From Lophium mytilinum (lineage: Eukaryota), in NCBI GenBank assembly GCA_010093605.1, contig MU004181.1, forward strand, positions 310,001-374,000: a stretch of DNA of 64,000 nucleotides, given 5' to 3'. Positions 2,212 to 64,000 of the stretch are shown here, piece by piece. The notes under the pieces are model-generated. The model saw only the letters and a program-made list of their open reading frames with translations. It was not told the DNA's origin and searched no databases. The position numbers and the translations under genes were made by a program. Within the stretch, counting starts at the first letter, position 1; each line of letters opens with the position of its first letter.

Positions 2212-2264
2212 AAGTCTAGGTGCTATGGTCGATGACCCGTCAGCCATAGCACCTAGATTTTTTT
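2212..2264 (+). ncRNA. pre-miRNA-like hairpin immediately 3' of the tRNA-like element, ending in an oligo-T Pol III terminator
   Basis: Perfect 14-bp stem TCTAGGTGCTATGG (2215-2228) / CCATAGCACCTAGA (2244-2257), extendable to about 22 bp with G.U pairs and one mismatch. T7 run at 2258-2264. Confidence 0.7.
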
Positions 2265-31530: not shown

Positions 31531-34090
31531 GCGCTCTGCAACACCACCACGCTGACTATATATCTATATAGATAGCGGAGCTTTTTTTTCACATCTATTG
31601 AAACAAGTTTTGTATACATTGCGAGATGAAATTACTGCTGTAGTGTTGATGGGTGACAACTTTCGTTCCAGCAGCGCAGCTTCGGGAACACGCTTCGTCG
31701 ACACCAGCCGTCTTTTCAGCCCGCACAACCATTGGCCGGCTCTGCAGTGCCTCTGGGACACTCAACGCGTCTCTCTGTCTGTCGCCCCAGAAAGTCGGCC
31801 ATCAATTACCTTTCCTCATCACCCACCGGCAGTCAAGAGTCAGCCGTCCGGGCACAAGGCCGAAATTCTACGCCATCACCGCGCGGAAACAGCTCATGAT
31901 ACGGTCATTCAGCTGCCAGAAGTTCTTCACGAACACCCAGCAGCTCGCCGTCGAACTGCTCACTGGGAGTGTTACGAATCCATCATATCCAGAAGACCCT
32001 TCGCCCCCCTCGCCTCCCGCCTCAGCATCAGTGCCCCAAGTGGAGGCCTCTGTAAGCACCATAGCGGCAATCTCTCCAACAATCAATCTCCAAATCACAA
32101 CAGTAGGTTCATTCATCTCAAGGTTTCTCCTGTTCCTCTTGGCTAATTGATTGTACCTAGCCTACCCATCTGCACCTACATCCAGCCCGTCATCCAGCAA
32201 TCGGCGCCATCGCCGCAGACATTAGGCTCCATCTCCGTCAATGAAAGTCTCATCGAGCTCACCAACTACCATATCATCATCATCTACATCAAAAAGAACA
32301 CCCCCGCCTCTCCCTCACCCAGCCCGTCCACCTCGCCGGACCGAACAAACCCCCTTCATTCGCGCATGCCTGGCTAACGGAGTCCTACTCCTCGACGCAA
32401 ACCGCCCCATCCGCCTTCCCTCCCTCCGCGTAACCTCCCTCGATCTGCTGAAGCGGGCCCCCGCCGAGCGTCTCCCCTGTGAGGGGCTGGATCACACCCT
32501 CTCCGTCCGCCGCCTGTACACCGCGGTTGACTACGACCTTGCTGCTAGCCAATCAGCCACACCCCTCCCCAATCCTCCGCGCCAGCCTGCACAACCTCGA
32601 TCTGCGGGATTACTCGCGCATGAGCTGCCCGGAGTCGATCGTGATCCGCCCCCTCGTGCGCACTCTACAGAGCTCGACAAGAGGGCGTCGGTGGAGCAGA
32701 ATCGGCGTTCTAGCCTCACAGCGCGAGTCCCGACAGGAGCGGGCGCAACTGCCCTCATGCCGTTCCTCCTCTATGCCACCAGGAAAGAGGTCTTAACGTT
32801 TAAGGGGTGTCGTGGGAGATGTTTCGTCAGAAGCGTGGCGGACGGTATGTGATATGGTATCAACTCGAGGTGGAACAGGTGATTGCTTGGGTTAAGGAGG
32901 AGTGGCGGATGGAGGAGTTCTGTGGTGTTAAAAAGTAGGACTTGGGAAGGTTATAGGCGCCCGACCGTACCGCCCGGCTCATCTCGAGGCGCACGGTATC
33001 GTGGCGACCTGCGTATTTGCCTATCGCGTCCTGTAAAAGGTGAACCTGCTCGCTGTGGATTGGAAGTTCATGTTGCAGCTTCAAGGCTGCCATTACCCAT
33101 AGGTGCGCTGCCGTCTGCAGCGTTTGTGCCAGCAGTTTCTGGATGGGGCCTGCATCCGTCTTTACCAACTGCCATGCAGCCTCTCCGTGGTTGGTGCGAG
33201 CGTGGACGATGCGCGCCGCTGTTCGATGACGAGACGCATGTCGTGTCGGAGAACAAGAAGGTGGAGATCCGGGAGGGGGTGGCGTAGTATAGTGGCGCGC
33301 GTACGATGCGTTCGGGGAGAAGGGTTTGGAGAGGCCTGTTGCTCCAGATGGGAGGCAGAGGCCCCGTCTGTCTTTGGCATTGGGAACATGAAATAGTAAG
33401 TGAATGAAGCCACCTCAAACGGTGCTGCGATGTGTGATAGAGCATTTGGCAGATTGAATATTTGAATAGTATCTTGATTCAGAACAACTACAGCCCCCAT
33501 ATCTCCTCGCTCTGGCATGCGCCATTGGGAATAGCCCAAATATCATATCCAAACCAAAGGATGATCCTGCCGATCTTTCGACTTCACGCTGAGGCCTAAG
33601 TCTCCGTCTGCTTCGCTGGTCCAGTGCCTGTCAGCGATTGATCATCAGAGAGAACATCAGAGTACACATACCTGCTGCAGAAGTACGCGACTGGAAAGAA
33701 GAGCTGAAGTTGGCCCCATGCGACTGCAGGAGGGAATGTGGCTTGCGGCCAGACGTGTCTGTAGGCTGATAAGGCAGCGTGCGAAGCCTGTACCTGCAGT
33801 TTGTGCCCGGGTTTGTCTTCCGTCCGCTTCTTCTAGTGCGAACTACTAGAGCCTTGTTATCCACAGCGGTATCCAGGGCGGGCTTCTCCGTGATGCGTTG
33901 GAGAGCAGGATTCTGTCTTGGTTGCGATGGGTGATCTCTGCAAATGTGCTCGCGTCATCTTTCCCTTCCGCGTTACGCTCGCTGCTCAAACGAAATTCGA
34001 CGTACGTGTTGGAGCCATTTTCGGGAAGGCCACAGGTGTGGGATGGTGACAAGCTGTCGTGGTATGGAGGACTTCGTGACGCAACTTCCC

Positions 34091-34246
34091 GCCACACACG
34101 ACTTCTGAATCTCCTCGGATCATGTAGAGAGCCTGGTCAGCCTTCGATCTCCTCTCCCCGCTGTCGGCTGGCACGATGATGCGCTCGACGGTGTCTTGTA
34201 GGGCGATTTTGGTGTTCTGGTCGCAATTGATGAGGGTGCCGTACGA
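34091..34246 (-). pseudogene. LSM8: LSM8 (Sm-like, U6 snRNP) gene fragment
   Basis: YGTLINCDQNTKIALQDTVERII...LYMIRGDSEVVCG carries Sm1 and Sm2 motifs typical of fungal Lsm8. Confidence 0.7.
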
Positions 34247-34402
34247 CTGCGGTAAGGCGGGAGAGACCGCACCATCTGGAAGGGCAGGGATTAGCTCAGA
34301 AGACAAGTCATCGAAGATGTACAAGACACGTTGGGATCATACCATAGTGATAGAGGGCGAATCTCAATTCTTCAGGTTGCGAAAGAGAGCATTGGGCTCG
34401 TC

Positions 34403-37679: not shown

Positions 37680-38905
37680 GTTGATGGATTGGTGGACGAG
37701 GTTGTGGAAATGATTGTGGGTGTAGAGGGTTGGTGCGTTTTGGAGGGCGAGGCGTCTATCAACATTACGCCCGGCTTAGGCGACCTGCAGATCTCCGCTC
37801 GCCGTGCGGCTCCTCCACCACACCTACGCTAGACTTCGCCGCATATTGGGTCCCTCCTCAGTACAGACTACTATCTTCTTCATTCCCTTCCTACTGCATC
37901 ATCGTTGCTGGACTTGCCTAAAACCACGGCTCCGCAGCCGCTCGCTCGAACGGCTCGACGGAGCCTCGCAGAACCACGGAACGCCTGGCACCCTACCAGA
38001 AGCCTGAACTGACATCGCAGCATGCCTCTGCTTGCGCTCCACCCTCTCGACCAGCCCCTCTTTGTCCCGCGGAAGAGTCCTTGTTTGAGGCCGCCTGCCG
38101 CACCGTCCTGCGCACTTGGCAGACGGGCAGGGGAGCCCCTGACACCGCCGGGGATGGGTCAACACGGTTCATATATAGGCAGGAAAGAGACGGGACATCA
38201 CTATGACAATGTGGGAAGCTTCCCTTGACCCCCTACAGATAGGCATATATATGATATGACGGGATGAGGCGTGCAGCTGCGCTGGGAGGTGGGTTATGTA
38301 GGCGGGACCGTGAAGCAAACGATCGCCCTAGAAAGGCGGGACAGCAAACATATATATGCTTCAAGCGTTCTGAAGTATTCAAACATTCGAGATATGCTAT
38401 CTAATTCTCTAGTTGGGCCAATTTTCCCCATCTCCTCGCCCTGGCAAGATTCAAGGCCGTGGTTGCTGGGGAACTGCTCACCCCTCTATCCCCCGAGGGA
38501 GCTCGCCGCTGCCATATTCTCTCAATGACTAAACTAATTGCGCAGGATGATACCTTGTTGAGAATCCTCATGCGCGTTGGGGGCCGCCTCGTCGCTGCTA
38601 TCTTGGTTGGGGGCGAAGTCCTCGCCGATATCATCTGCCCCTTGCGAGCTGCCTCCCTTCCTCTCCTCAACACCACGCTCTCACCACCTCCTCAACACAC
38701 CCTCTTCATCAACTTCATCATTGCATCTGTTTTCTGCCCTCTCAAGTCATCCTGTACAATGGCTCCTCCTCGCCCTCCTTTCCCCTCGCTCGCTGCCCAC
38801 GACGATCGGGGACACCTCCACCGCCCTATACATATCCCACCAACCCTCGCCGACCACCACAGCCCCAACCACCCCTTTAAGCCTGAGGTGTGCACACATC
38901 GTACT

Positions 38906-39040
38906 GTTTCCGCGAGGTCCATTGCTTCTTTGAAGACCAGCATTGTTAGCCTCATCGGCTATCTCCACGAGAACCCGGATACCACCCTGCCGAGCTTGTC
39001 ATACACCACCACTGCCCGCCGCATGCAACATCACTATAGG
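38906..39040 (+). pseudogene. non-reducing PKS fragment (KS-AT linker)
   Basis: VSARSIASLK..LIGYLHENPDTTLPSLSYTTTARRMQHHYR. Confidence 0.8.
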
Positions 39041-39246
39041 CCCGACCGTACCACCGCCAGTTCAGAAACCATCAGAGGTTAGACTTCACCATCACTGAAA
39101 GCACTGTCGGCGGCGAGGCAACGATCAGCCCAGCCAGCGGCAGGACGGCTCTCGGCGACCTGCTCTCGCCCTCGCAAGAGGTAGTCTTTCATTCTTCTAG
39201 TAAGTCCTCACTCCTTTCTCACCCGTCCAATAACTGCTGTTTCCCC

Positions 39247-39821
39247 GTGCTAACCAGTGAGTCGTCATGGCAGCCTGCGCTGGTCGGGCCGCTGAGCGAC
39301 CGCCCAGGCTTCGCACATAAAAGGACCTTCTGGCACCCTCCTACCGCAAGACGAGAGCGAGCAAAAGTCGCTGCTCTGCCGCCTTCTTCATCGTTGCCTG
39401 CTGCTCGTTGGAGTCTTCTCGGCCACCATCAAGGCCGTCTCCACCTACACGACATCCAGACCTGCAATATCCTCATCGTGAGCATCGATCCTCCCCCTTC
39501 ACTCCTCCAACAACTGCTGCTTCACTGTGCTGACCAGTGAGTCGTCATGCAGGCTACGCTCATCGAGCCGCTCAGCGACCGCCCAAGCTTCGCACATAAA
39601 AGGACCGAGTGTCGCCCTCCTACCGCAAGATGAGAGTGAGCGGACGACGCTACTCTGCCATCTCCTTGACGGTAGCTTGCTGCTCGTTGGAGCCCTCTCG
39701 GCTACCATCAAGGCTATTTTCCGCCTTGCCGACATCCAGCCCTACAATGGCATCATCGTGAGCATCCACCCTCCTTCTTCACTACTCCAACAACTGTTGC
39801 TTCACTGTGCTGACAAGTGAG
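39247..39821. repeat. tandem duplication, 280-bp period x2 plus start of a third
   Basis: GTGCTRACMAGTGAG at 39247, 39527 and 39807 with similar bodies. Confidence 0.85.
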
Positions 39822-39867
39822 GTGTAGTATCAGCTCCATTGCTCACCGAGCTGCTAGACGACTGCCC

Positions 39868-39957
39868 GGCCGTACACTCGTCGGCATCCTCATCAGCTGC
39901 GACCACAACACCAACATCGTTCTACAAGACACCATCGAGCGCATTATTGTGCCAGCC
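39868..39957 (+). pseudogene. LSM8: second LSM8 fragment
   Basis: GRTLVGILISCDHNTNIVLQDTIERIIVPA; shares the IVPA continuation with the 34.1 kb copy. Confidence 0.75.
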
Positions 39958-40347
39958 TACCGCGGGACAAAAGAGAAATGGCAAGCAGGACAGGTGAGAC
40001 CGTGCTGGACGAGACAATATGTGGAGTTGTTGGTGGAGAAGTCTTTCAGTATTCTTACGTTTGGTACTGTTTCAATATCATCCTGTCCCCGTTCTAGCCC
40101 TCGGGCCCCTGCCGAGCGGAAGTGAGTGATGCACTTGCGAACGACAATGCGGCGTCTTTCCAGCCCGCGTCTCAAGGTACGCTTCAATCCCCTCTTTACA
40201 CCTCTAGACATCAACTGACTTCGAACAGACCGACCTCCTCCTTCGACCGTCCTCCGATCGATTCTCAGCATCGCGACGACGATGTCCACACTCACCCTCC
40301 CCCTTTGACCATAGCACCTAGATACATACCTTTCGCTGCCGATCTTG

Positions 40348-40401
40348 GCAGCGAAGGGATTCAAAGCGACCAAGCTTAACGTACCTTTTGCATTCCACTC
40401 T
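40348..40401 (+). pseudogene. non-reducing PKS fragment (AT domain)
   Basis: AAKGFKATKLNVPFAFHS contains the AFHS motif. Confidence 0.75.
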
Positions 40402-40719
40402 TCGTGTGGAAGTTTCATTCCAGTACGAAGTTTTCTATGCATTTCTGCTGGCGCCTGGAGGCAAAGGGATTCGGAAACGGTCAATTTGTTGCTTGTTGCC
40501 TCACGGCTAGCAAACGGGCGAACTAATGGGAGGGAGTCTGGGCCTGTGGTAGGTCGATCCGCATCGACCATAGCGCCTAGATGGAAATCTTTCGCTCGGG
40601 GCCTGGGCCCGAGCCCAACAACGTCCGCTGTTGTCAGCGATGGTAAGAAGACTCCAAAGTTCGTTGGGCGCTCAGAAAGCTAACTTCGAGAGAGAGCAGG
40701 GGATCAAGCTGCCGGAAGA

Positions 40720-40960
40720 CTGGCATTCCAGTGTCCAACCAGGCCTACGTTAGCGCCGTGAGCGTGATGGTCCTGACGATCAGCGGACCTCCCTCGACGA
40801 CCAGGCGCCTATTCAAGGAATCCGAGCAGTTCAGCAAAAACCACCGCGTTCCGATTCCCGTCTACGCTCCTTATCACGCGCAGCATCTATACAACGACGC
40901 TGAAGTCGCACGAATCATCGACCCGAAGACACGAGAATTCCTCAGGGAGTACCGCCCATT
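40720..40960 (+). pseudogene. non-reducing PKS fragment (SAT domain, C-terminal part)
   Basis: GIPVSNQAYVSAVSVMVLTISGPPST..RVPIPVYAPYHAQHLY. Confidence 0.8.
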
Positions 40961-41807
40961 GTGGTTGGAGGAGGAGGGGCTGTCGTATGATGGGCGCAGT
41001 TCGCGACTACTTGGTAGTACCATAATGAAATCCTTTTTCCCTTCTAGCCCTCGGGCACCTGCCGAGTGGAAGTGAGTGATCTGCTCGCGACTGACAACAC
41101 CTCGACGAACTGAAGCTGAGTCCTCTCGCCCGTCCGTTCAACCTTTTATTCTCCTCCGGGGTTCTTGTTTCGACGTTAACTTTTTCAAGCGGTCAAGGAA
41201 AGTAAGTAAGCTTCAATTGGGTCACCCACGGAATTTAACTCTTCTACAGGTGAAGCGCCGGCAGTTGAACTGGCTGGACTTCTCCTGCTTATCGCTGCAG
41301 TGCGGTCTTCTCCTCCACCAAATTTGCAGCCAGAATTAGCTCCATTCGCAGCAGTCAAAGACGGTAAGAAAACTCACACACTTCACTTTGCAAAGGCTAA
41401 CCCAGAAAGAAGTGAAGCGCTTCTCCTTCGTTTGCTTGAAGCTTGCAGACGAGCTTGGGGGTCTTTGTCCAAGTGACAGACCTCTACCGACCGCGTCCAA
41501 ATGCATCACGCCTGGACCGGATAGACGACTCGACCAACCCGAGCCTTCACCCGAACTGCTTGTTGCAGCCTCAGAATGAAGCCTCAGATCGAAGAACCTT
41601 GTAACACCCAGGTCGATTTCACTCCGAAAACGGTCTCCAAACAGCTGCCTGTCGCTTTTCCTGCTCCTAGCCAACACGCTAGTCAACAAATCGACGGTGT
41701 TGAGGTGATCCATCACCTGTACATGCACCTCTAGTACTTCGCTTGGATGGACGACCATCCGCCTGATCATCGATTCGCTGAGAGGATCTGTTGATCGCCA
41801 AGGCATG

Positions 41808-41996
41808 GTGACACTGGCACAGCTTGCGCACTACATCAGGTGCACAGCTTTCGCACTACATCGTGTACGTACGCCATCTGAATGTTCGAGGGCTTGACTA
41901 ACTCTTTCAGGTACTACGACGAGAACCCAACCGAAATACCAGCACCTTCAACCGCGCGGATCCTTGGATCGTGCACTGGTCTTCTCGCAGGGGCAT
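41808..41996 (+). pseudogene. non-reducing PKS fragment (SAT domain, GxCxG region) retaining an intron
   Basis: VTLAQLAHYI-R, intron 41840-41910 (GT..CTAAC..CAG), YYDENPTEIPAPSTARILGSCTGLLAGA. Confidence 0.75.
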
Positions 41997-42037
41997 CCTC
42001 TCTCCTCCGTCGTCTACTTCACTTCCTCTTCACCTGT

Positions 42038-43335
42038 GGCTCTGCGTATGGAGGGCATGCCAGACCGCGCACCCACCTTGGAAGACGGAAGCTTGTGTCC
42101 GGAGGCGCACAAAATGAAGCAAGAGACGGACCAGGCAGTGAGTAGGTCCAGCGGGCACTTCAACCTCAGCCTTCTCTCTCGTCTCATGTCTGGCTCGGTT
42201 CTGGCTACGTCAATTGCTTCTTATCACCACCTGGCCACTTGCTGAAAGACCGTTTCGTCACCCGGTAGAAGCAAGAGACAGATCTTGTGGTGGGCTGTGG
42301 GCTTGTGTGCTCCGCGATTCCGACGAGTTCAGTTCCCGACTCATGTTCGGAGACCTCACCTAGGCGCAAAAGATCTCGTGGTCCCCCGTCTTCTGCAACG
42401 TCTAGCTCGCCCAACATACGTCGGAAGCCGTCGAACAAAACGGCGGACGAGACGACGGATTTGGCGTGGGCAACGCATGATGAAAGCTTGTCTCCGGAGG
42501 CGCACAAAATAAAGCAAGCCGTCTGCTCCTCAATCATTTGAGCTCAGTTCCAGACTCGTCCTCGGAGTCCTCCCGAAGTTGCAAGAGGAAGCCGTCAACT
42601 GCGATGACGGGAGAGACGATGGATTTCGCTTGGGCTTGTCACACCACAAACGTACAACAGCAAGCTTGTGCTCCGCGAATCCTACGAGTTCAGTTCCCGA
42701 CTCCTTTTCCGAGTCTTCTCGTAGTCGCAAGAGGAAGCCGTCAACTGCGATGAAAGAAGAGACCACGGATTTCGGGTGGGCAACGCATGAGGGAGGCTTG
42801 TTTCCGGCGGCGCACAGACTGAAGCACGAGACGGACTCGGCGGTGCACGCCATGGGACCGCAGATGGGGCCTCAGTTTTCCTAAGACTTTAGGGTCCCGA
42901 AGAGTCCGGATCTTCTGCTGCCGTAGGAACAAACCATCACGCCCTCGAAGTTGCAGCAGAACCTTGTCACCGGCAACGCATGAAGTAAAGCAATGGACAG
43001 ACCAAGCGGCGGACGCCATAGGAACGCGAGATGACCTCTCAATTCCCAGACGTCAGTTTGTCGAACAGCCCAGACCCTCTGCTGCCGCAGGAGCAGACTG
43101 TGACACCCTCGACCGCGATGACGGGAGGGATGATGGGCTTCGGGTGGGCTTGTCACGCCGGAAACGCGGATGGCCTCTCAACTCCCAGACATCAGTGTCC
43201 CGAATAGCCCGATTCTCCGTTGGCGCAGGAGCAGACCAGCACGTCCTCGAAGTTGCAGCAGATGTTTGGGATGAGGAACCAAGTGCCGAACTTTGTGGCT
43301 CTGCGTATGGAGGGCATGCCAAACCGCGCATCCAC
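42038..43335. repeat. patchwork of short internal duplications
   Basis: GGCTCTGCGTATGGAGGGCATGCCA near 42038 and 43297. GCTTGT-TCCGG-GGCGCACA near 42091, 42486 and 42796. TGCTCCGCGA-TCC-ACGAGTTCAGTTCCCGACTC near 42308 and 42669. Confidence 0.8.
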
Positions 43336-45344
43336 TATGTGCGAACCTGGTATCTCAACATCAGGGCCTAGTTGTTTTGCCGCTTTTGGGATAGCCTCGC
43401 CGCTGCAAACCCTTTCGACAACCTTTCGCGTTTGCTTCTTCACCTTCGTCCAACCTGCGACCACCACTTCACTTCTAGCTCCTCACAAGCTCGCAGCCGA
43501 GTGAAAGACTACCGTTTCTGGCTCCTGAACAACTTTCGCGCCTGGAAAAGCCACCCTCATCGATCAGACGCCTGAGAAGAGATTCTTCGCTCCAAGCCCG
43601 AGCCCAGCGATGTCCGATGCTGTCAGACCAAGGCCCGCGGTTGCCAGCACTATCTGGCATTTGTAAAGATTGACAAGCTACCCAGAGAACATAAGGTTGA
43701 ACTTCAATCGACGGGTCCACCCCATCGACCATAGCGCCTAGATGCAGATCTTTTTCTCCGGGGCCCGAGCCCAGCAATGTCCAATGTCCGCTGTTGCCCG
43801 GACTACTTGGCATTTGTAAAGATTGACAAGCTAGCCAGCGAAGAAAGGTTGAGCTCCATGTTCCGGGAGAAGCAAGGTTGAGCTTCATGTTCCGTTGCGG
43901 TCGGGACTCCATGGCATGTCGACAAGCTATCGGCGAACGAAAGGATGGCCTGCGGTCGACTTGCCCACCCCATCGACCATAGCACCTAGATACAAATTCT
44001 CGAGTCTCGGCTCGAGTTAGAACGTCTGCTGTTGTCAGGACTACCTGGCATTTGTCAAGATTGATAAGCTACCCGGGGAACGCAAGGTTGAGCTTCAAGG
44101 TCCGCTGCGGTGTGGACTACCTGCATTTGTCAAGATTGATGAGCTGGCCGGCAAACGAAAGGTTGAATTGCAATCCAGTGTCGCTTCTGTCAAGACTACA
44201 CGGCATTTGTCAAGATGGATGCTCTATTCGGCGAACGAAAGGTCGAATTGCAATCCGCCAGCCCGCCCTCTAGCATCGACCCATCCGCTGAACCAACCTC
44301 TTCATGCAGTCACCAGAAGCTCCAATGCTTCCAGCTTCGAGTTCAATGCAGAACATGAACACTACCGCGAGATCGAATCCAATCGGGGCTTCGATCCCGG
44401 CTCCTCTGAAGCTTGAGCCTCGCAATCCGCATATGAACTACGATGCTTCAATTCCAGACCCTAGTGCATACTTCGACCAACGCCGCTGAAGAAGCACCCA
44501 CGATCCGCGATCGCCATTTCTGGCTCCTTTACAGCCTCGCGCCCCACGGCACTAGGCTGGCATCCCGGGAGTGTTTGCACCTCGAGATTGCCGTCGCGGA
44601 CAGTCACCCATCGTCTGGTATGTCAAACATGTGTTTTCGCTTGGTTCCGTTTACTGACGAATGTCATGCAGGGGTATCAATGAGGGCAGGCAGTGTGCAG
44701 GCGACGTGGACTTTTTCCTTAGCGGAGTAGGCAGCATGCTTCCGGTTACTGGAGGCATCGTGAAGAGTGCTCCTTATGTTGCTTTTTCTGGCGAGAATTA
44801 GGTAGTTACTCATGGTGGAAATGGTGACGGTAGTACCGGAGAGCGCGGTTTTTAATGGTGGTTTTCAATGGCGGTTTTCCGAACAACCAGTATTTAGTTC
44901 AGCATAAGTAACTGCAGAGCGTGATATTCAGGCAGGTCTGGTGGCGCCAGGCGTCGGAGGGCTTTGGATCGCGTGCAGAAGTTTCGTAGATATGAACAAA
45001 ACCCAGTCTCACCAGGCGCTCACCGTGAGCAAGGCCAATCGCATGCGGAGGTGCTGAAAATTGATGGATGTTGGCCGCAAACGCAACCCTCCTCGGCCGA
45101 CTCTCCCCCGCCGACTCTCCCCCAAACAACAACCCTCCGCAACAGGTACTACTGCAAACAACTCTAGATCCGCTAGCAGTCTAGCTAACCGTGCGCGCGC
45201 TTTAGACAAACCGTAACCCAGCGTCAAGCAGCTCGCGCACCATCACTCCTCAAAGCACCCGTTGCCGCAACCGCCTCCCGCCGCCGCAACCGCCTCCCGC
45301 CTCCCGCCTCTCGCCTCCCACGCACCCAACACCCACCTCCTGCA

Positions 45345-45480: not shown

Positions 45481-48400
45481 GTAAGTGCCACCCCGCGCCT
45501 TGAAACCGCGCGCAATCCTACATCATGAGTCTGGGCACACGGAATCAGCACTGCTTGGCTGGAGTCCTGCAGACTGAGCGCCGCTGTAAAGGGGAGCCTA
45601 GCTGCCGCGCAGCCGGTCGGTCAAGAGGGGGTCTGATCTTCGCTGCTTGGGCCTCGACATCGGCCGCGAATTCGAGGGACTCCAAGAAGTGGCGGACGAG
45701 TGTGCACAGACTATGAGCTGTCGTTATGATATCAGTGCTAACGACGCGCAGGCCGCTAGACCTCGCTGCGCTCCTTCGGCGTTGGACCTCTCCAAGCGAC
45801 GCACCCGCGCCAGGAGGACCTGTGCCAGTCTTCGCCGAACATGATGTTGGAGCTGCGCTCAGCGAGACGTCCCGCACCAGGAGAAACCTTCCTGGCATCA
45901 CCGAAGACGGTGTTGGATCTGCCCGGAGTGACACCGCGCATGACAGACGTTGATCCGGACGACCTTCCTTGGCGGGAGAAGAACGAATCGCCAACCTCGT
46001 GCCTGCAGAAGTCTATCGAAGTTCCCAGTGCATTTCTCGACCGTGAGGATCCTACGTACGCCAAAGCACGGCAAGACAATGGCGCACCCGCGTCAGAAGG
46101 ACCTGTGTCAGTCATTGCGAAAGACGCCGTTGGAGATGCGCTCAGCGACACGTCCGGCACCAGGACCAACGTCGGCACGGCCGGTCGAGGTGCATTCGTG
46201 TGAATTGTCGCGCGATCATCGGGAAGACAATAACATGCCATCTGTGAAGATGGTTGATATTGGCCGGAAAAGAGTGCGGGGAAAGTCGTGCTTAAGGGGA
46301 AGTGTTGTGCTGGGCTGCGCTCAGCGACATGTCCCGGGTCGAGCTGCTTTCGCCGGACAGACTAGGTGACTACGAGGAAGACAACAACATGCCATTCGTG
46401 AAAATGGTTGATGTTGGCCGGAAAGGAGGGCGGGGAAAGTCGTGCTTGAGGGGGAGATTCATGCTCATCGGGGAAAGTCGTGCTTAAGGGTACGATCCAC
46501 CAAAACCTTCGTCTTCGACTTTGCTAACGTACCATGCCTGCAGACTGGGTTTGTTCGGATGTGGAACATGGCGCAAGAGCTGCGGAGACTTTAGGATTCC
46601 CTTATTCGAAAAGCTTCCCTGTCGCTCACGTTTTGTGCGTGTTGATTTGTTTGCTTGACTTTGCTTGGTTGCTGTGCTTCATGATGTCTCCGTCTCGTTC
46701 TTTTCACATCTTCCTTGCTTACGACCATTGCCCGAAAAGCGTCTCTCCTTGGTACAGTACCGAGACGTAATTCTGGGCACCCGACATAGCACTCCGCCGG
46801 TTCCAATCTTGATCACGCGATGCCACCGTCATTAGTGGCCCGGCCAGCAAGTCGTCGGCAGGTCAAAGGGTTGCCTGTGCAACACTGCATCGAGCTTTAC
46901 GTCGTCTTCGGAGTTACATCGTCTTCGGAGAATCAAAAGCCATAAGCGTACCTGAAGCGGCCCCAGAAACTAAAACCCCCCATGACAACCAAGGTCGCGG
47001 AGCACAACGACAAGAAGGGTATGAAGAATGCCGAGAGGTAAGCGTCTCCCCACAGGAAGAGCAATGTAAGACGAGGAGATGCTGATACCAAAATACTCCA
47101 CCGGGGCCAGGAACGATCGCCCTCGAGAACCTACCACCTCCGTTACCAACCTCCCACCTTGCAACCTGACCGAGCCCCATCCTCATCCCCACAAGGCCAT
47201 GCCTCTGCCTGCCCAGCCGCGACACATCTAACCACCCCGCATCATACCCGCGAAGAAAGCGCGAAATCGGTGTACTTCGAATGCGAGATGGAGAATAACC
47301 ATGTGGAAGATTAGCGACGAGAGAACAACGGGCAACCTACATGCGAGAGTGGGGCCCATTCAAAGAGTGAGCAGAGTCATCGAGGCGGGGACGGAGACGT
47401 GGTTGGACAAATGGATTGCGAACATGAAGGATATACATACCTTGGTAACCTCTCCCCTCCTGGTACAGACTTCGACAAAAGCCGATAGTTAACAGATTGC
47501 AGGTGGATATGAAAAAAGGACTTGAGCGTTGAAAGCAGAGCGACGCAAAAATACCTGCTGCAAAAGAAAGGCGAAGTTCGGATAAAACCAAGTTGGAACG
47601 CTCAGATTGCACGAAATGACTTGACAGCTTGACGTAGTTGATCATCTGTGAGTATGACTGGGAGACAAGGAGACGCGCAGAAGGACTGACTGGTGGAAGG
47701 AATATGACGATACGAAAGCTGAGTGGAAATCATGGTTACCTATACGGCTGAACAAAGTACTGATTGAGTTTGCAGGAGCTCGCATGAAAGAGGGCCTCAA
47801 CAGCAGGTATTCGAAGAACGAGACTAGGATGAAGCCAATGAGGAGATCAGTACGAGACACCTACCTTGACAAGATGAAGCGAGGTCGAGCCGGGGATGAA
47901 ACCCATGAGATGATCAGTAAAAGATGCCTACATTCACAAGATGAGACGAGAACGAGACTGGGATGAACCCGATGAGAAGATCATTACGAGACACCCACCT
48001 TTACAAGATGAAGCGAGATCGAGGCTGGGATAACCCCGATGAGGAGTTGAGTCCGACAGTTGAGTAAGGGACACCCACCTTTCTCAGATCAGAATGGTAT
48101 GCGACAGGCTGACCCCCAAGCAGAAGTTTTTACCTCAAGCATCGCAGCGTTGACACATGGACTGACGTGCAATTCCAAAAGATCATGAGAGGCGCGAAAC
48201 CAGACGAAGAAACGACCTACTAGTACGCATCCCACCCATCAGCCAGAGGCGAGAAAAGAACGCGATCAAACGAAACATCGCCAGAGGATTGGATACTCAT
48301 TGAGCCAGAATGAAGCTGATAGAAACCTACGATCGGGAGAAATGCGACGACCTGAAAGATAAGTAAGACCGGAGAAAGGTACCTGTACATGAGCTGTTAT

Positions 48401-48699
48401 GCTTTGCAGATCCAAAGCGGCGCCGCTAGCATCGTAGAAAAGGTTTCCGCGCATCAAACCTATCCATTCCCACCTGTAGATCAAGAGAGCCATTGACGAC
48501 CACGCCAGAGTTTCGTGAATGACGAGAACGAAAGTTGAGCAAGGACGGAGAGACCTACATTCATACTTGCTGACCTGGCTTGCAGGCCAAACCATCGCCA
48601 ACAAAGTCGCGGAACGAGGGCCTTCGAGCATCAAACTGCTCATTTCCGGAACCCCACTCACCCACTCACCCACTATCGAGGTAGTGGACACATAGACGA

Positions 48700-48862
48700 T
48701 GACGCAAGAGGATCGAGAGCGACGAAAACGACGAGAACGAGGAGGACGGTGAGGACGAAGAAGAAGACGAAAATAACGAAGAGAACGAAAACGACGAAGA
48801 GGACTAAAATGACGAGAACGACGAGGGTGACGAGAACGACGAGGGTGACGAGAACGACGAAA
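48700..48862. repeat. low-complexity GACGA/GAACGA tract with an 18-bp unit repeated about 3 times
   Basis: TGACGAGAACGACGAGGG repeated at 48810-48860. Confidence 0.85.
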
Positions 48863-49499
48863 AAGAAAGCTGAGTAAAAGCAGAGAGACCTCCATGGGTA
48901 TTTACTGATAAGGCTTGCAGGCCCAAAGAAAAAAGGACAAAGACAATGCGAGAGGAAAGAAAATCTAGACCCTGGCCTTCTCACCTTCTTCGGGCCCAAG
49001 GATGAAAAGAAAGACGCTGAGCTCACAAGAGTATCGCAAAAGGAAATTCGAAAGCTGAGTGAGAAGTGCAGGCATTTACCGGATCCATCCACTGACTGAG
49101 ATTTCAGATTCATGAGAACATCGCAGACCGAAGAACACGAGCAGAGATCACTAGCGACTTACATGCGCGACTTGCCTACCGATCGATCGTAGACGGAAAG
49201 CATCACGCGAAAGGAGGTTTCGGATTTGAAGATTGAAAGCTGAGTGGGAAGCTCGAAATCTTACCGAGATCCATCGCTGACTTCACAGTGTAGACTGATG
49301 TGGGAGCTGCTTTAATTTGATTTGAAAGAGCTTATGAGATTGAAGCGGAATTGGATATGGGAACACCTACATTGAGGTAAACTCAAATTGCCAGAAGCTG
49401 AAAAAGAAACGATGATGCTTGGATTTTGCCAAAATCATGCTGATGTCTTCGAAGTACGTTGAGCAGCAAAGACCTACCGCCGTGAGAAAAAATGGGCTG

Positions 49500-49740
49500 A
49501 CTGAAAGCAGGACGCAAAGAGCAGGACCCCTATCGGATACCTTGGTAGCGACGAAGAAAGCAACTGCCGCATGGAATTGACAAGTTGAGAGCAGGACGCA
49601 AAGAGCAGGACCCATACCAGATATCTCGAAAGCGACGTGGAAAGCGACTGCAAGCTGAAACCGACTGATTGGGAGCAGGACGTAAAGAGCAGCACACCTA
49701 CGGGATATCTTGAAATCGACGAAGAAAGCGACTGAAAGTT
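49500..49740. repeat. about 84-bp degenerate tandem repeat x3
   Basis: GCAGGACGYAAAGAGCAG near 49507, 49591 and 49675. Confidence 0.8.
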
Positions 49741-50329
49741 TTGGAACCAAACGACAAAGAAGTCTTTGAGATGGTTTACCGTGAGCAAGAAATGGATATG
49801 GTAGAGACTAACTGGAAAGCAGAAGCGCCTACCTTGGGGAGCAGAAAGCAGATATCGAGAGGACTCGGAGATTCAAGAAGCAAGACACAGAAAGTGAGTG
49901 TAGAGTCGAGATCACCCACCTCCGAGGATCATGAAAAGGAAGCTGGTATATCCAACACAGAAGACCCACCGGGAGACACATAAGACCTACCTGAAGAAGG
50001 TAACGCGGGCCCTGAGTCAAAGGACGAGGGAAAGAAAGAGAGGGAAGTCGAACGATTTACGAATGAAGCTGAGTAGCACGAACCGCACTTACCGTTGCAA
50101 GGAAACTGACGAGCAAGAATGATGACAGCGACAGACCGCGAACTGATACGGAGATCAAATCTTCAGAGAAATATTAAGCAACCGCGGGCAAGGAATGAAA
50201 GGATGGCACTTACCGCACTCACCATTGCAACGATATCGACGAGAAGAGACGACGTTGAAGAAAGACTGCGAGCTGAGTACGGAAATCAAGCCTTTCAAAG
50301 AGGAAAAAGCCACCTCGGGTAAAGATCTG

Positions 50330-51490
50330 AAGGGAACTTGTACCAAAGCTTGACAAGAAAATGAAGCAAAGACGACTGACGCTGGCATAGCCCTGCACAT
50401 AGGAACTTCGCGCCGATCATCCAAATTCACCTACCTTCGAAGAAATCTGATGAGACGACGACGCATAAAACGAGACTTCGAACGGGATGAGAGTTCTGGA
50501 AGGGTTCAAGAACCTGAAAGCGAGAGAAATGGGTTGCTGACCCTGGGAAACATGAGAGCTGACTCGACATTGCTAGGGACGTAAGAAATCCGCGAAAACT
50601 ACTCACATTTACCTACCTCTCAAGCGGAGTGGTACGAGGTGACGACCTGCAGAAAAAGCCTTTGAACGGGAACAGAGTTTTGGAAGGAATCAGAAAGTTG
50701 ACAGAGAGGGACAAGGTAGGTTGAACCCAAGAGACATATATGAAAGCTGACTTGGCATTGCTATGAACATAGGAAATCACTGCGACTAACTGCCTCTCAC
50801 GGGGATTCGGACGAAACGATGACGCAAAGAACAAGATTTCGAACAAGGCGAAAAGGGTTCATGGACCTGACAGCAAGCGATAAGATGGGTTGAACCCAAG
50901 AGACATATGAGAGCTGACTCGGCATTGCCCAGGACATGGAAAATTCGCGCCGATCACTCAGAATCACCTACCTCTTACGAGAATCCGGACGAGACGATGA
51001 CGCGTGGAACGAAGCTTCGAGCGAGATGAGAGATCTGGAAGGGTGCATGAGCCTGAAAGCGAGAGATGAGTTCCGCCAAACCTGAGCAAATGATGAGGGC
51101 TGATCCGGCACTGTCATGGACATAAGAAAGTCACGCCAACGACCTAGATTCACCTACCTATCAACGATTCAGACGAGAAGATGACGCGTAGAACAGAACT
51201 TCGAAAGACATGGAGAGGCTCGGAGGGTTAATGAACCTGGAAGCGAGAGATGAGTGCCGCCAAACCTGTATAAATGATCAGAGCTCACCCGGCATAGCCA
51301 TGGACGTAGAAAATTCGCACCGACCACCTAGATTCACCTACCTATCAGAAATTTCGGATGAGAAGATGACGGTTTGGAGGAGACTCGGACAGGAGGGATC
51401 TGAAAGGGTTTACAAACCTGGAAGCAAGAGGAAAGCAAGGTTCGCTGAACCTGGGAAGCATATGAGAGCTGACTTGGCATCGCCGTAAGC
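50330..51490. repeat. about 180-190-bp degenerate tandem repeat, about 6 units
   Basis: Recurring TYACCTACC at ~50428, 50610, 50965, 51150 and 51335, plus recurring GAGCTGAC..GGCAT and CCTGRAAGCRAGAG blocks. Confidence 0.75.
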
Positions 51491-54400
51491 ATAGGAGATT
51501 CGAGGCTGGACCACTTACTGTCGCGAGAAACCCGAGGATCGGCGAAGACTTCCAAGATTTGAAAGTTGTATCGAGAACACTTACCTAGGAGCAAAATCGA
51601 GGAGCAGAAAGTAGATGAGCACCAAGCTTGGCTAGATATGAGGAAAGCTGGCTTACCAAAGATAGGATGGGACCTGGCCGGCCGGAGGAGATGAAAGCTG
51701 ACTCGGCATGGCCGCAGACAAAGGAGATCGAAACTTGCTCCGCCTACCTTACGGCGGAGATGCGGGAGCTGAAGAGAGATTGAGAGGTCGGTGGATTTCC
51801 AACTGGTTGCGGAGCAAGACTGCGAGTTGAAAAAGAGAGTGAGCATGCCCGCGTGAGGGTCAGAGATCAAACCGTAAGAGAGAAAAAGAAACTGCTGATA
51901 TGGCATCGCCGGACATAGTGATTGTAGGAACCCGCGAACAGAAACCTACCTTCACCTGAGGAATGGATAAACGACGCAGTGAGATCAAACCTTGGTGAAA
52001 GAAATGGCCTCCGACGCGGCATTGCTGGACACAGGAAACACGAAACGTACTGTTAGTCAATGATATTTGGAGGACACGAGCAGAAGTGGAAAGCACAGAC
52101 GAGAGCCTACCGTTATCGAGAGAAGCATGGGTGGGAAATAAGGAGCATGAATCACAGAGATGAGTGAAATGAGATTCGCCGGGCAACCTGGCCACCGCTG
52201 ACTTGATAGGCATTGCCTTGGATAAAGTGAACCACCCACCTTTGACGGAAGACTAACGAAAGGGCGGTGCCCACGAGACGAAGGGAATCGCAGAGATGAG
52301 TGGAAAGAGATTCGCCGAGTAACATGAAGATCGCTGACTTGATATGTATCGCATCGGACATGGGAGATTCCCTACCTTTCATCGGACATCGACGAAGGAA
52401 CGAGATACTGAAGGGGCTGTGCCCATGAGAAGGAAGAAATCACCCACCGCATTCCAAGAAGCGAGCTGACGTAGACGCAAGCAAGACGAGAACGAGAAGC
52501 ACCACAAGGAGTCCTCACCTTTGTTGAGAAGCTGAATATAGAAGAAGAAAAGAAAACAGAAGATGGAAGTGCTGAGGCTAACGGGATAAGAGAATACTCA
52601 CCGAATGCGACCAGGCCGCACGAACTCGATCCCGATAAAAAGGCGATAAACGATTGCCGTGGACATACGGAATGACTTACCGTCTAGGAAAATCGACGGA
52701 GAAGCGCATGAAGATGTGAAGGAAGCGCTGACGGAGGTGTGCGGACAAGAACGAAAAATGGAAGCAGCGCAGATATGCAAGGGCGAAGCCCAACGAGCAA
52801 GCGAGAACACTCACCGGCTATGAGAAATTGGAGTGACGGTGAAATGGTTGTCAAGGATGGATATCCAACGAGGAATGCCTACCTGCGGGTGGTGTAATGA
52901 GTCGATGCCGAGACGATCGCCTCGATGGAAAAGATAAGACACAGAACTCATACCTGCAGAACGATGAGCTGACTCAATAGGGACGAAAGAAATCGAAGAG
53001 GCAACCGAGACAAACGAGATTGCCTACCAGGTGCGCGTAACATGAGAGATGAGGCTTCGCTGACTGCACGGAACGCATAGATCGCTCACCAACTTCAAAC
53101 TCCTACCTGCTGAGCCGGAAATCAATTGATCAGCGATGACAGTAGCGACAAAGAGAAAAGATGCGAAGGAGATCCCCTACCAGGTGTTCGAAATGGACTG
53201 ATGCGGAGAAGGAAATCCGAGAAACGAGCCTAGATTCCAAGACCTCACCTACTCTTGGAAGAGACTGAGCGACGCCGACGGCAATAACGAAGGCCAAGGA
53301 ATGAGAAAGCTCACCCACCAGGTATGCAGAGATTAAGAAGACGAAGCTTGAGGGAGTGCTCAAATACAGACGTAGAGATTGCACTTGGACTTGGAGAACC
53401 TACCTTTCGACTAATGGGGAGCGACTGAAAAACGACGATGGCAAATGCTAGTGAGTCAAAGGAGACGCCTTACCTGGACATTCGAGATGACTGACTGGGA
53501 AATGAAGGTATCCAACTAACGTGGGGAAAGGACTTCAAACCAAAGATCGATCCTAACTTGGGAGCAAGCACGTGACTTGAGGAATGTGGACTGACAAAGA
53601 CAAGGAAGTAGGAGCGGAGCAAGGGGAGCTTACTGGTGAGGGCTGTCAGACGAGCAGAAAAGGAAGGGAAGTCCAACCCAGATCAAAGACTGCGATCACG
53701 AGATTGACACGTGACATAGTCCAATGCCCAGAAGACCGAGAAATTAGGAGATTCTCACCGTTTCAATAGGGAAGAAGACGCTAAGAACTCGACCGCAATG
53801 ACAAGACAGGGAGGCCTTGCGAGGGCCGACTCAGGAGGACGATAAAGCGCCTACCTTTCCACGCTGAGAAAAATGATAGTAGAACCAACTTGTGTGACCA
53901 CGACGAAGGGGATCATACCTGATTTTGGACGTCTGGAATTGAAGGCAAGCACACGAACGCAATGACAGAGAAGCCGAAAGCGTTGACATTTCCAATGGCT
54001 TGGTGCCAGAGAGACAGACATGACGATTACCTTGCTTAGGAAAGATGCGACGTTCGCGGGACAAATGAGATTCTTACCTTTTTTCCAGAACGATGCGACG
54101 GTGGTATGAGATGAACGAAGCATGGCGCTTATCAGAAAGATCTAGGAAAAGGTCACCTCGTTCGAGACACCTGCGACTGTGGACAGGCGACTCGGGCAAC
54201 ACTCTGCAGACAAAGGAGACACTTGCCGTGTGGAAGAAAAGACTGACTGCAAGAATGATGCGACGACGGTACGAGAAGGACACTAGTGAAGGAAGCCCAT
54301 GATACATGTCAGATGCTTACCATGACCAGGGAAAATGCGAGGGTGATGCATTCGTCTCGAATTAACGACATGAGCCGACGGCAGAGAAAGATGTTAGACG

Positions 54401-59499: not shown

Positions 59500-60740
59500 T
59501 CACTCCTGCGACATCCCCCCCGCACTGCTTTCGATACGCCACGTCTTGCCTCCAACCTCTACCGATCCAGCTGATTGATACGGCACCCTGAACCGGAACT
59601 CCGTGAGAGGCGTCGTGAGTTTGCGAACGGGTGCGAGGATATACGGCTCATTTACCGCAAACTTCTCTGCGTCCCAGAAGCCACTCAACGTCAGTTCAAC
59701 GAAAAGAGATCGCAGCCCCTGCATCCCCGCCATCACTCTCCAAACACGGTGCCAATCGCGTTCCGCTTCGGGGTCGTCGTCCTTTGCAACCACTTCCGCC
59801 TCCATGAAGGCGTTGAAGAGCGAGTACTCGAAGTTGAGCGAGCGAATCTGATGGAGCCGTTGCGTCACAAGGAGGAGGGGCAGCTGCATGAGGGGATCGG
59901 CCTGGCGGAGACAGAAGGTGTTGGCGGTGTAGAGAAGGTCGATTGATTCGGTGTATCTGGCATGTAGTGTTAGCAATGGGCATATCAAGTTCCTTGCGGC
60001 GAAATCTATGTTCCCTATCAACTAGCCAAACTTCTGCCAAGGGGGCTGCCCCTAGGCGCAGCCTCCGACTTCCATAGGAGGGCTCAAATAGTGCTGCACC
60101 TATGGACCACGTCCTCGGGTCGATGTCTTACTACTCACATTTGGCGACAGCTCAGCAAGAAGTGCAGCCGATTCAATCCTACGTTCGCCTTCGTCCCGTG
60201 CGCATCTCCGCAAAGCGACCTTTCTTCGGCCACGCACTCACAGCTGTAGAACCATCGAAAATAGGACCCCACCAAACGTATCCCCGAGTCTCCAACAACG
60301 TGCCGAAATATCTCTTGGCGAAGCTCAAGGGGCAGCTTATACAGCAACGACGCCGATGGCTGCAGTTTCGGCTCTCCAATGACAACTGGCGCTGGCCTAT
60401 AGGGTGCAGGGTTTCGAACTCGCTCTTGTCGGTCTTGCGCTTCCTCCTCGATCTTCTGCGCCGTCGGTGTATTCCTTTTCCTGCCGCTTTTGGTGGGCGA
60501 ACCATACCCAAAAAAGCTCAGAAGATAGGCCGTCCACCCTTCTTCTTGCTTTTCTGGTTCAGTGGGTGGTAAAACCGTGCTATACTTCTCCCAATAGGTA
60601 ATGTAGGGGGAATTTGTGACATCTTTCCAGACTGATTTGTCGGGCGGCGAGTACTGAATACGGCCGATGTAGGCGCGCCTTTCTTTTTCATTTAGATCCG
60701 GGTTGTTTCGCAGCCTTGTGACTGCTGGTGTGATCTCCAT
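59500..60740 (-). CDS. DUF7730-like (F-box-like) fungal protein
   Basis: ATG 60740; QPSASLLYKLPLELRQEIF..FLLSCRQ, phase-2 intron 60138-59957, YTESIDLLYTANTF..IRSLNF..W..MAGMQGLRSL. Confidence 0.8.
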
Positions 60741-61472
60741 AGGGGGGGTCGTAAAGTTGGACAAAAGTTGAGATGGGATGGTATTCGTATGCATGCAGGT
60801 GGCAGCCTGGGGCGGAAGTGGCTCAGTGGCGCAGATTGTGGCAGTGCTGCACGTGACCCCACCTAAGAAGCCACCCCCTCTTCCTGAAATTGGATGACGG
60901 ACTTGCTGCACTGACTTGATTGTATTTACAACGCAGTGGGTGTTTTTGTTCCTTAGATAGATGGCTAGCACTAAGCACTCCAATCCCGAGTATGTTATCT
61001 CACGTGACCTTCTCGCCTCGAATGCTACGCCGAACCTTATCCAAAACACCATCATCCATCTCAACATCCACAAGATCGCATCTATCACCGCTCCAAAGGC
61101 GCTCTTCCCAGTGGCGTGTGTTCAGGGATGCGGTGTGCAAGATCGGGCTTTTTACAGACTCGAGGCCAGCTTGCCTCGCGAATGTCTTGAATCAGATCTG
61201 GCGTGTTTCGACTCAACGTCGCATGTTCAGTTTTCATAGCAACGCGAAGAATCTCAGATGACTTCGTCGACACTATTGATCAAGAATGTACTCGTGGTTC
61301 CGATCTAGAGCCTCAGAGATAGGACTTCCGTATAAGCTTTTCATGACAACTCGCAGGACTCCTAACGATGGCGTCACCTATCAAAACTGCATTTTCCAAG
61401 TCCTAAATTCCACTCCATTACTTTAGCAGCCCTTTCGGCGCATTCGAATTGGAGTGCCGGACAAGCTGTTTT

Positions 61473-62421: not shown

Positions 62422-62783
62422 GATGATGATGTGTTGTTGATTGCACAAGCACAGAGTAAAACAGGACGCAAGCGACTTGAAGTAATGCAGTCACGGCCGT
62501 AAAACACCCACCTTCACTATCATGAGAGAAGAATGTGGCGCATACATGTGGCTCTCACGTGACCTCCGCGACAGGCCAAACGCCCAGGCGCTGGGCCACA
62601 TTCGACAGCTTTTAGGAGACGCTTTGTGGATTTGCGGAAGGTCCTCACGTCTCGAATCTCGTACAGAAAGTTGGCGCACCACGCAATGGGAGCCACGTGA
62701 CTGAGCTTTGCCGCTTGCTGTGCCGCAATCTCGATGCCCCTCATCTTTCGTGTCTCTGCATGCCACATCTCCATTTTCAAAAT

Positions 62784-63928: not shown

Positions 63929-64000
63929 AAAGAGACGGGTACGGCTAAGGAATAAAATAAATCGATATTATCGGGAACCCCGCTCGCAAAGATACATCTA

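Follow-up and report, generated by a model that had tools for sequence, protein, structure and literature searches.

A tRNA-linked hairpin in Lophium mytilinum and sister copies of its palindrome in a tandem array: a candidate small-RNA gene

The 64,000-nt stretch of Lophium mytilinum DNA analyzed here (the window; all coordinates are positions within it) contains a palindromic module of approximately 47 nt that is present in sister copies, one of which directly follows a tRNA-like gene and is most likely transcribed by Pol III and released by RNase Z (we put the probability of this reading at about 0.55). The first-pass annotation had singled out a 20-mer, the reverse complement of positions 2215-2234 in this hairpin, as the target of a guide RNA, and had quoted a chance figure of 1e-7 for the exact match as evidence of targeting. 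This figure points instead to common descent, given that the arms of sister palindromes are antisense to each other. Since the module descends from a palindrome, each copy has a 5' arm that is antisense to the 3' arms of all the others; and, given the homology of the whole hairpin at 40534-40583 and the relic at 43971, the supposed targets are halves of such sister copies.

The tRNA-like gene (2131-2211, plus strand), identified with Rfam and ARAGORN, has good D and T arms and a non-canonical anticodon arm. The Rfam tRNA model matches it at 48.4 bits (gathering score, 29), and the alignment places a 15-nt insert in the anticodon loop; the arm can be drawn either with this insert or as a 7-bp stem with a 12-nt loop, and in the sole ARAGORN solution ('Ser-ACT') the anticodon stem is mismatched. 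Canonical tRNAs have an anticodon stem of 5 bp and an anticodon loop of 7 nt with U33 and a purine at position 37, after which an intron may follow. Interpretation of 2131-2211 as a canonical tRNA gene was rejected, since it requires the 15-nt insert and since a canonical intron would make position 33 a G. The segments 2138-2148 and 2190-2200 are, by eye and against the consensus, what we take to be A-box-like and B-box-like elements, respectively. A TATA-like A/T run can be read from the sequence at 2094-2100 (plus strand), 31-37 nt before the tRNA-like gene. By comparison with the TATA-like elements of Neurospora milR loci (PMC3547838), it might serve Pol III as an upstream element.

The hairpin (2212-2260, plus strand; 5' arm 2215-2234, loop 2235-2237, 3' arm 2238-2257) was recovered both by folding and by an inverted-repeat search. 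With a folding energy of -32.3 kcal/mol (z -10.6), it is genuine and very stable, as originally described, and no other short inverted repeat in the window is as strong. The 5' arm begins 3 nt past the end of the tRNA-like gene, with no run of four or more T between them, and the first such run after 2131, a T7 at 2258-2264 (plus strand), lies directly 3' of the hairpin, its first three T pairing with 2212-2214 to extend the stem. Established Pol III biology makes this run the presumed terminator. The layout is that of a tRNA-linked microRNA-like RNA (milRNA) locus, with a tRNA-like gene upstream on the same strand and a T-run only after the hairpin. Both arms are homologous to the matched sequence, one in sense and one in antisense, as in inverted duplications. 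In particular, the 5' arm is antisense, at 20 of 20 positions, to the exact site and to the array consensus, whereas the 3' arm is identical in sense to the 20-mer at 17 of 20 positions, 15 of them consecutive. The three differences all fall among the first six bases of the 3' arm. The 5' arm is antisense to the sites on the plus strand, as the annotation had it.

Two Logan contig sets, approximately 44 Mb each, both contain one unbroken contig of 12.2 kb that spans positions 2000-2400. No second contig resembling this segment at 80% or more was found in either set, a comparison that is blind to short copies, as is clear from its failure to report the 20-mer sites of the window itself; both sets come from one sample, which might be the source of the window. 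Judging from these contigs, the tRNA-linked locus would be neither an exact multi-copy repeat nor an assembly slip. Metagenome scans returned 0 matches. No sequencing run recorded as RNA contains the locus, and no contig from a run presumed to be RNA aligned to it.

A search of the window for the 20-mer with up to three mismatches yielded 6 matches, including both hairpin arms, compared with an expected 0.00 from 100 dinucleotide shuffles. This re-search of the sequence reproduced the earlier coordinates and mismatch counts of the 20-mer sites, all five as claimed. The four sites in the array are all on the plus strand: 43971-43990 is exact; 40562-40581 and 43723-43742 each carry one mismatch, in both cases A-to-G at site position 14, which would indeed, as noted at first, give a G.U pair with U2221; and 40303-40322 has mismatches at site positions 2 and 4. 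The sites belong to two subtypes (40303 with 43971, and 40562 with 43723), and this division, together with the single substitution common to the one-mismatch sites, implies that they are not four independent observations; as 3'-arm halves of sister hairpin copies, they cannot stand as the independent targets for which they had been taken. A fifth, decayed repeat head at 43558-43577 (plus strand), identified from nhmmer unit matches and alignment, differs at approximately 5 of 20 positions, including one deletion.

A sign of descent is a second complete hairpin at 40536-40582 (plus strand), detected by folding, duplex prediction, homology and a covariance model, in which the 3' arm is the 40562-40581 copy of the 20-mer. 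Similarity to the tRNA-linked locus had been thought to stop at the 20-mer. In fact, 2212-2260 aligns with 40534-40583 in the same (+/+) orientation over the whole hairpin (approximately 50 nt), with 33 of 52 columns identical. The second hairpin has a folding energy of -24.6 kcal/mol (z -3.9), which none of 500 shuffles reached, and the duplex of its 20-mer with the upstream sequence (-24.9 kcal/mol) is equaled or bettered by 4 of 2935 background windows. In the alignment of the two hairpins, 40 of 42 cells hold standard pairs. Eight pairs differ, namely five one-sided changes that remain paired, two losses of pairing and one double compensatory change, U-A to C-G, which includes the A-to-G at site position 14; a shuffle control of the covariation (255 of 500) is uninformative with two sequences. 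On the plus strand, the mispairs in both hairpins comprise seven G.U (one common to both) versus one C.A, an excess noticed post hoc, for which a binomial estimate gives a p of roughly 0.04-0.06. The covariance model R1, built from the plus strands, scores 57.8 bits on the plus strand versus 11.6 on the minus strand at 40536-40582, and 66.9 versus 47.3 bits at 2212-2260.

Apart from the tRNA-linked copy, this is the only clear hairpin. At 43942-43990 (plus strand), search, duplex prediction and gapped alignment join the exact 20-mer to a marginal 5'-arm relic (43942-43959) across an enlarged loop; the upstream duplex of -14.9 kcal/mol is matched or exceeded by 140 of 2935 background windows, and local alignment gives no significant support for the relic (an equal or higher score in 323 of 2000 shuffles). 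Upstream of 43723 the duplex reaches a non-significant -8.4 kcal/mol, and upstream of 40303 no 5'-arm relic was found, the duplex with the 45 nt preceding it (-2.3 kcal/mol) being at background level. Nor does 5'-arm similarity reach significance when the sequences preceding the five heads are pooled (272 and 224 of about 4000).

The five copies head units of approximately 250 nt in a decayed tandem array at 40.3-44.3 kb and are flanked by homologous sequence on both sides. The body of the units consists of sub-repeats of approximately 78 nt (44021-44256, plus strand; self-blast, nhmmer and peptide motif) with a decayed repeated peptide motif in shifting frames. The heads are divided into two groups by a 2.9-kb patchwork of gene fragments that lack evident function. 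These include a fragment of a polyketide-synthase SAT domain at 40647-41072 on the plus strand (Pfam PF16073, E 1.6e-15), which covers only profile positions 183-239, and a second SAT scrap at 41882-42142. The claim that the 20-mer is the best-conserved part of the repeat holds for the three copies at 40562, 43723 and 43971, where its mean pairwise identity is 0.97, compared with 0.80 for the next best non-overlapping 20-nt window and 0.53 on average; however, the margin shrinks to 0.80 versus 0.75 when the decayed copy near 43558 is added. The unit also holds another block (40621-40637 and its copies) with conservation close to that of the 20-mer, and the 20-mer is not kept in every unit, being decayed at 43558.

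The matches, the second hairpin and the anatomy of the cassette are observed, and what we say on transcription, processing and any silencing is inferred from them. The five array copies comprise a full hairpin at 40536-40582, one with a marginal 5' relic at 43942-43990 and others with the 3' arm alone, either as the 20-mer or in decayed form. The sixth copy (2212-2260) exactly fills the space from the tRNA-like gene to the first T-run and is the only one within an intact-looking Pol III cassette. It is most likely transcribed by Pol III together with the tRNA-like moiety, and an RNase Z cut at 2211/2212, with an end in the T-run, would yield a hairpin RNA of approximately 50 nt with a U tail. 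A small RNA from this hairpin is plausible. Should the 5' arm give rise to a small RNA, its natural, near-perfect plus-strand matches would be the array copies, and the locus might be likened to a young small-RNA gene that arose from the very repeat it targets. The fuller version of this scenario is a natural 'shRNA gene', in which a tRNA-like Pol III gene that no longer decodes caught the array palindrome in its trailer and the 5'-arm small RNA silences the progenitor array, 38-42 kb away on the same chromosome, at the transcript or chromatin level; it is tentative and, in our estimate, improbable. A small RNA that starts at the RNase Z end, 2212, would carry three extra bases and have a poor seed, as only G2214 of 2212-2214 can pair (as G.U) with the T that comes after each of the four sites. 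The stem (approximately 20-23 bp) and the 3-nt loop, both short for a Dicer substrate, also count against the small-RNA reading.

A dedicated guide-target module, in which selection maintains the complementarity of a 5'-arm small RNA that silences plus-strand array transcripts or marks chromatin, appears doubtful to us. It would fit the anatomy of the Pol III cassette, the location of all four sites on one strand and the wobble-type changes, which suit a plus-strand RNA hairpin, as well as the status of the 20-mer as the best-kept window of the repeat. It would also suit a reciprocal asymmetry between the copies: the tRNA-linked copy has kept its 5' arm in full antisense to the array consensus and has 3 changes in its 3' arm, whereas the array copies retain their 3' arms (with 0, 1, 1 and 2 changes) beside 5' arms that are decayed or absent. 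Palindrome descent, however, accounts for the complementarity on its own, and the sites, with their two subtypes and common substitution, are not independent. Moreover, one of the 'targets' is locked in its own hairpin at 40536-40582, the site is lost in the fifth unit, and the array neighborhood offers gene fragments only, with no evident target gene.

A neutral repeat, in which a chance copy of the array palindrome landed behind a degenerate tRNA gene, in its trailer, and has no RNA function, is, we estimate, also rather unlikely. Most of the sister copies are decaying, the surroundings at 38-44 kb are full of fragments and tandem duplications, and the tRNA-like gene, with its non-canonical anticodon arm, could be a pseudogene, all of which a neutral repeat would explain. 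Yet the palindrome fits exactly into the short gap that separates the 3' end of the tRNA from the terminator, where a random insertion would have had very little room to land, and by eye no target-site duplication flanks either 2213-2258 or 40536-40582. The tRNA-linked copy is also far better preserved than the second hairpin (-32.3 vs -24.6 kcal/mol), the mispairs lean toward the kind with which a plus-strand RNA can still pair, and the unbroken contig at the locus argues against an exact multi-copy element. Sites that act in DNA, either attachment-type repeats of a mobile element next to a tRNA gene or an operator-like palindrome for a DNA-binding protein, are very improbable. The palindromic architecture and a 15-nt direct repeat beside the tRNA-like gene that recurs 38-42 kb away (2244-2258 = 40309-40323 = 43977-43991) would be in line with such sites. 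Nevertheless, no Pfam domain of a recombinase, transposase or integrase was detected in the ORFs scanned at 1-48 kb (79 of the 104 with 120 aa or more and 238 of the 309 with 70-119 aa, the latter all up to 47,963), the sites are heads of a tandem array with homologous flanks rather than element ends, and the interval that they would bound contains a U6 snRNA gene, all of which speaks against attachment repeats; the G.U-type changes would weaken pairing in a DNA palindrome.

If the hairpin is expressed and processed, the locus would be a fungal microRNA-like gene near its birth, with the progenitor repeat still recognizable nearby and a tRNA-like Pol III promoter as the expression device, and a single locus would test two ideas, namely the birth of small-RNA genes from inverted copies of their targets and the seeding of fungal small-RNA genes by tRNA genes. 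Should the silencing reading also be true, it would be the first fungal case to unite birth by inverted duplication of the target with tRNA/RNase Z biogenesis. If the hairpin is not expressed, it is an ordinary decaying palindromic repeat and a warning that, within a palindrome family, complementarity of an arm to a site is not evidence of targeting.

Among known systems, MITE-like or other palindromic mobile elements resemble the module in that a short palindrome occurs in several copies; in contrast to them, the palindrome here has no visible target-site duplication, is, to judge from the contigs, not an exact multi-copy sequence, would be unusually short (approximately 47 nt) and has all its other copies in the window in one array. 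The model in which plant miRNA genes arise from inverted duplication of a target sequence reportedly goes back to Allen et al. (2004). As summarized in PMC9641971, it shares with the present case the homology of both arms to the matched sequence, with a drifted sense arm and a complementary antisense arm; the plant cases are Pol II genes with protein-coding targets, whereas the present hairpin would derive from a non-coding tandem repeat and lies in a Pol III tRNA trailer. Hairpins that are linked to a tRNA and from which RNase Z makes small RNAs are already known from Neurospora milR-4 and the TMERs of murine gammaherpesvirus 68 (MHV68), so that the 'undescribed system' of the first-pass annotation is not supported. 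Genes of this class are expected to yield small RNAs of about 20-25 nt, made by RNase Z and Dicer and bound by Argonaute. The TMERs, each a tRNA-like element followed by pre-miRNA hairpins and processed by tRNase Z and Dicer (PMC4838037), likewise have a non-decoding tRNA-like moiety as Pol III promoter with hairpin(s) directly after it; they are viral, 200-250 nt long and have two hairpins, whereas the locus here is cellular, approximately 134 nt long and has one hairpin with sister copies in cis. milR-4 of Neurospora crassa is a tRNA-linked, Pol III-transcribed and RNase Z-dependent microRNA-like RNA, again of a filamentous fungus, with the small-RNA arm directly 3' of the tRNA, Pol III promoter elements and a T-run (PMC3547838). 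With the small-RNA arm directly downstream of the tRNA, RNase Z would set its 5' end. Genuine tRNA-Ala genes flank milR-4 on both sides, and its star strand is located beyond the second of them, whereas the present locus has a single tRNA-like gene, the anticodon arm of which is aberrant, and a single compact hairpin that ends in the terminator. At best, this locus adds a member to a known kind of tRNA-linked small-RNA gene.

The reverse complement of the 5' arm (2215-2234) of the tRNA-linked hairpin, hereafter the 20-mer, has four plus-strand matches: an exact one at 43971-43990, two that differ at a single position (40562-40581 and 43723-43742) and one that differs at two positions (40303-40322). 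The positions and mismatch counts of these four sites agree with the first-pass annotation, and there were no such matches in 100 shuffles. The same A-to-G change is present in both one-mismatch sites, and the flanking sequences define two subtypes, one comprising 40303 and 43971 and the other 40562 and 43723, so that fewer than four independent events are represented. Together with a decayed fifth copy, the sites head repeat units of ~250 nt in a tandem array. The body of this array consists of sub-repeats of ~78 nt, and the array is broken at 40.65-43.5 kb by a patchwork with polyketide synthase fragments. The 20-mer had been described as the best-conserved part of this degenerate repeat. 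It is indeed the top 20-nt window (pairwise identity 0.97, against 0.80 for the next-best window and a repeat mean of 0.53), but with two qualifications, namely that a second well-kept block is found at 40621-40637 and in its copies, and that in the fifth unit head, near 43558, about one quarter of the 20-mer is lost. Metagenome scans returned no matches for either the 20-mer (R at position 14) or the hairpin pattern.

What decides the matter is a second complete hairpin at 40536-40582, of which site 40562 forms the 3' arm. It folds at -24.6 kcal/mol (z -3.9), a stability reached by none of 500 shuffles; the pairing of site 40562 with its own upstream sequence is beaten or equalled by only 4 of 2935 background windows. 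A plus/plus alignment of 2212-2260 with 40534-40583 has identical bases in 33 of 52 columns, and 40 of the 42 cells of the common structure are standard pairs, with a G.T pair at the base common to both hairpins. Among the eight pairs that differ, five carry a one-sided change with pairing retained through G.U, two have lost pairing, and one shows a double change from U-A to C-G. This double change between the hairpins includes the A-to-G of the one-mismatch sites, which had previously been counted as a G.U wobble with the guide. The similarity to the tRNA-linked hairpin, claimed to stop at the 20-mer, extends at site 40562 across the whole hairpin.

A 5'-arm relic with insertions and an enlarged loop is marginal at site 43971 (140 of 2935 background windows are as good) and is not significant in a second test, whereas comparison of pairing with background windows detects no such relic at sites 40303 and 43723 or at head 43558, and a pooled test for 5' arms across all array heads is not significant. 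A covariance model made from the two hairpins recovers only these two training hairpins in the window, with the other heads below the E 10 threshold. Most probably, these are members of a family of sister hairpins, with one copy placed inside a Pol III tRNA-like cassette. The sites are then halves of sister hairpin copies rather than four independent targets, and their common descent from a palindrome accounts for the 20/20 complementarity. The earlier proposal, with the 5' arm as guide and the four sites as its targets, was partly right in anatomy and wrong in logic, since inherited complementarity is not evidence of targeting.

Several other explanations were considered and rejected. A coding reason for the 20-mer fails on the minus strand, where the ORFs read it in differing frames, and on the plus strand, where it lies within a decayed, frame-shifting repeat whose peptide motif is without homologues. 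For the ORF at 44021-44413, a search of proteins of 72-230 residues gave no homologue at E <= 0.01, and no Pfam family matches it; the array units are not coding. A tRNA-derived (SINE-like) origin is rejected because the sequence upstream of the heads is unlike the tRNA-like gene (426-939 of 1000 shuffles score as high), and 39.8-44.6 kb contains no tRNA-like Rfam match, even with E values up to 10 allowed. Helitrons insert at A/T sites, and Helitron-type ends were rejected by eye, as the bases on either side are not those of such a site. Of the marks expected of a mobile element, the hairpin locus shows no target-site duplication by eye, and no internal recombinase was found within the ORFs scanned. 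A short G+C-rich hairpin, the sequence of which varies by unit, is located within ~10-15 nt after each 20-mer (for example, a ~13-pair stem with one G.U at 40329-40358 and a 7-bp stem at ~43999-44016), and may be a further structured element of the array unit.

Gene scraps form a patchwork along the plus strand at 38405-42142, made up of the C-terminal part of a polyketide synthase, a piece of an LSM domain and two SAT-domain pieces that lie apart. The polyketide synthase fragments are at 38405-39079, 40647-41072 and 41882-42142 (all plus strand, Pfam), and spliceosomal-intron signals are visible by eye, e.g., around 40643-40700. With such signals and a U6 snRNA gene, the window resembles nuclear DNA of a filamentous fungus. 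The LSM-domain scrap at 39814-40122 (plus strand) is related to another at 33989-34336 (minus strand), with 85% DNA identity over 93 nt. The remaining Pfam matches in the ORFs scanned across the window are limited to a short RALF-like ORF (32534-32770, minus strand), which is weak (E 4e-4, 21.8 bits against a Pfam cut-off of 22), and a cluster at 59500-64000 in which at least three DUF7730 genes, or pieces of such genes, occupy both strands. In the ~8 kb of 48000-56000, A strongly exceeds T on the plus strand (skew 0.31-0.36), tandem repeats are numerous (periods of 9, 18, 67, 84 and 184 nt), and the large ORFs scanned have no Pfam matches.

The cassette itself starts with a tRNA match at 2131-2211 (Rfam, 48.4 bits) that is obtained only by allowing 15 inserted nt in the anticodon loop. 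ARAGORN offers a single fold, an implausible Ser-ACT whose anticodon stem is mismatched, and by the usual criteria this is not a canonical tRNA gene. Its D and T arms, where tRNA genes have their internal Pol III promoter, appear intact, and an A/T run is present 31-37 nt upstream. The hairpin begins 3 bases past the tRNA-like end and folds at -32.3 kcal/mol (z -10.6), and the T7 directly 3' of it is the first possible Pol III terminator; from this order, the predicted Pol III transcript would consist of the tRNA-like part, then the hairpin, then a U-tail. Positions 2000-2400 are contained, without differences, in one unbroken 12.2-kb contig in each of two Logan sets (~44 Mb each), both of which represent one sample, perhaps the source of the window itself. 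These two sets contain no further contig matching 2000-2400 at 80% likeness, and a third set, guessed to be RNA, contains nothing matching this region; among the sequencing runs recorded as carrying the locus, none is of RNA. Thus, the hairpin locus is neither an assembly slip nor an exact multi-copy repeat; short copies escape this comparison, as it missed the 20-mer sites of the window itself. No convincing larger inverted repeats surround the tRNA locus. A U6 snRNA gene (4841-4942, plus strand; Rfam, 62.9 bits, full length, with a T-run at the end) follows the tRNA-like gene at a distance of 2.6 kb, so that two Pol III genes are close together in a domain-free stretch. The ORFs scanned in 1-32 kb have no Pfam domain at E <= 0.001, and 1-32000 is unusually empty for fungal DNA, with 52-56% G+C and no obvious AT-rich decay.

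Beyond common descent, the hairpin might act through RNA; silencing of the array in particular is possible but, in our view, rather unlikely. The best-preserved copy occupies exactly the gap from the Pol III gene to the terminator, and the decay appears strand-specific: on the plus strand, the two hairpins have 7 G.U-type mispairs, one of them shared, versus 1 C.A, a small, post hoc count for which our own arithmetic gives p of roughly 0.04-0.06. The covariance model, which was built from plus strands, scores the plus strand above the minus strand (66.9 versus 47.3 bits and 57.8 versus 11.6 bits). Such G.U-biased mispairs and strand scores are what one would expect if a plus-strand RNA hairpin had been under selection. 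There is also a reciprocal asymmetry, with the 5' arm of the tRNA-linked copy perfectly antisense to the array consensus and its 3' arm drifted, whereas in the array the 3' arms are kept and the 5' arms are decaying. However, the stem is short and the loop has 3 nt, a 5' end set by RNase Z at 2212 would add bases mismatching the sites, one site is buried within its own hairpin, one array unit no longer has the site, and no functional target gene is evident.

Parts of this account have precedents. In the target-inverted-duplication model of plant miRNA birth, the hairpin derives from an inverted copy of its later target (PMC9641971). Neurospora milR-4 is co-transcribed by Pol III with tRNA genes and requires RNase Z (PMC3547838), and in the TMERs of MHV68 a tRNA-like element is followed by pre-miRNA hairpins that are processed by tRNase Z and Dicer (PMC4838037). 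Small-RNA precursors linked to tRNAs are thus already established, and the designation of the locus as an undescribed system is not tenable. The cassette at 2131-2264, as read from its DNA, has the anatomy of the milR-4/TMER family, and its hairpin copy is probably expressed as a precursor of this type.
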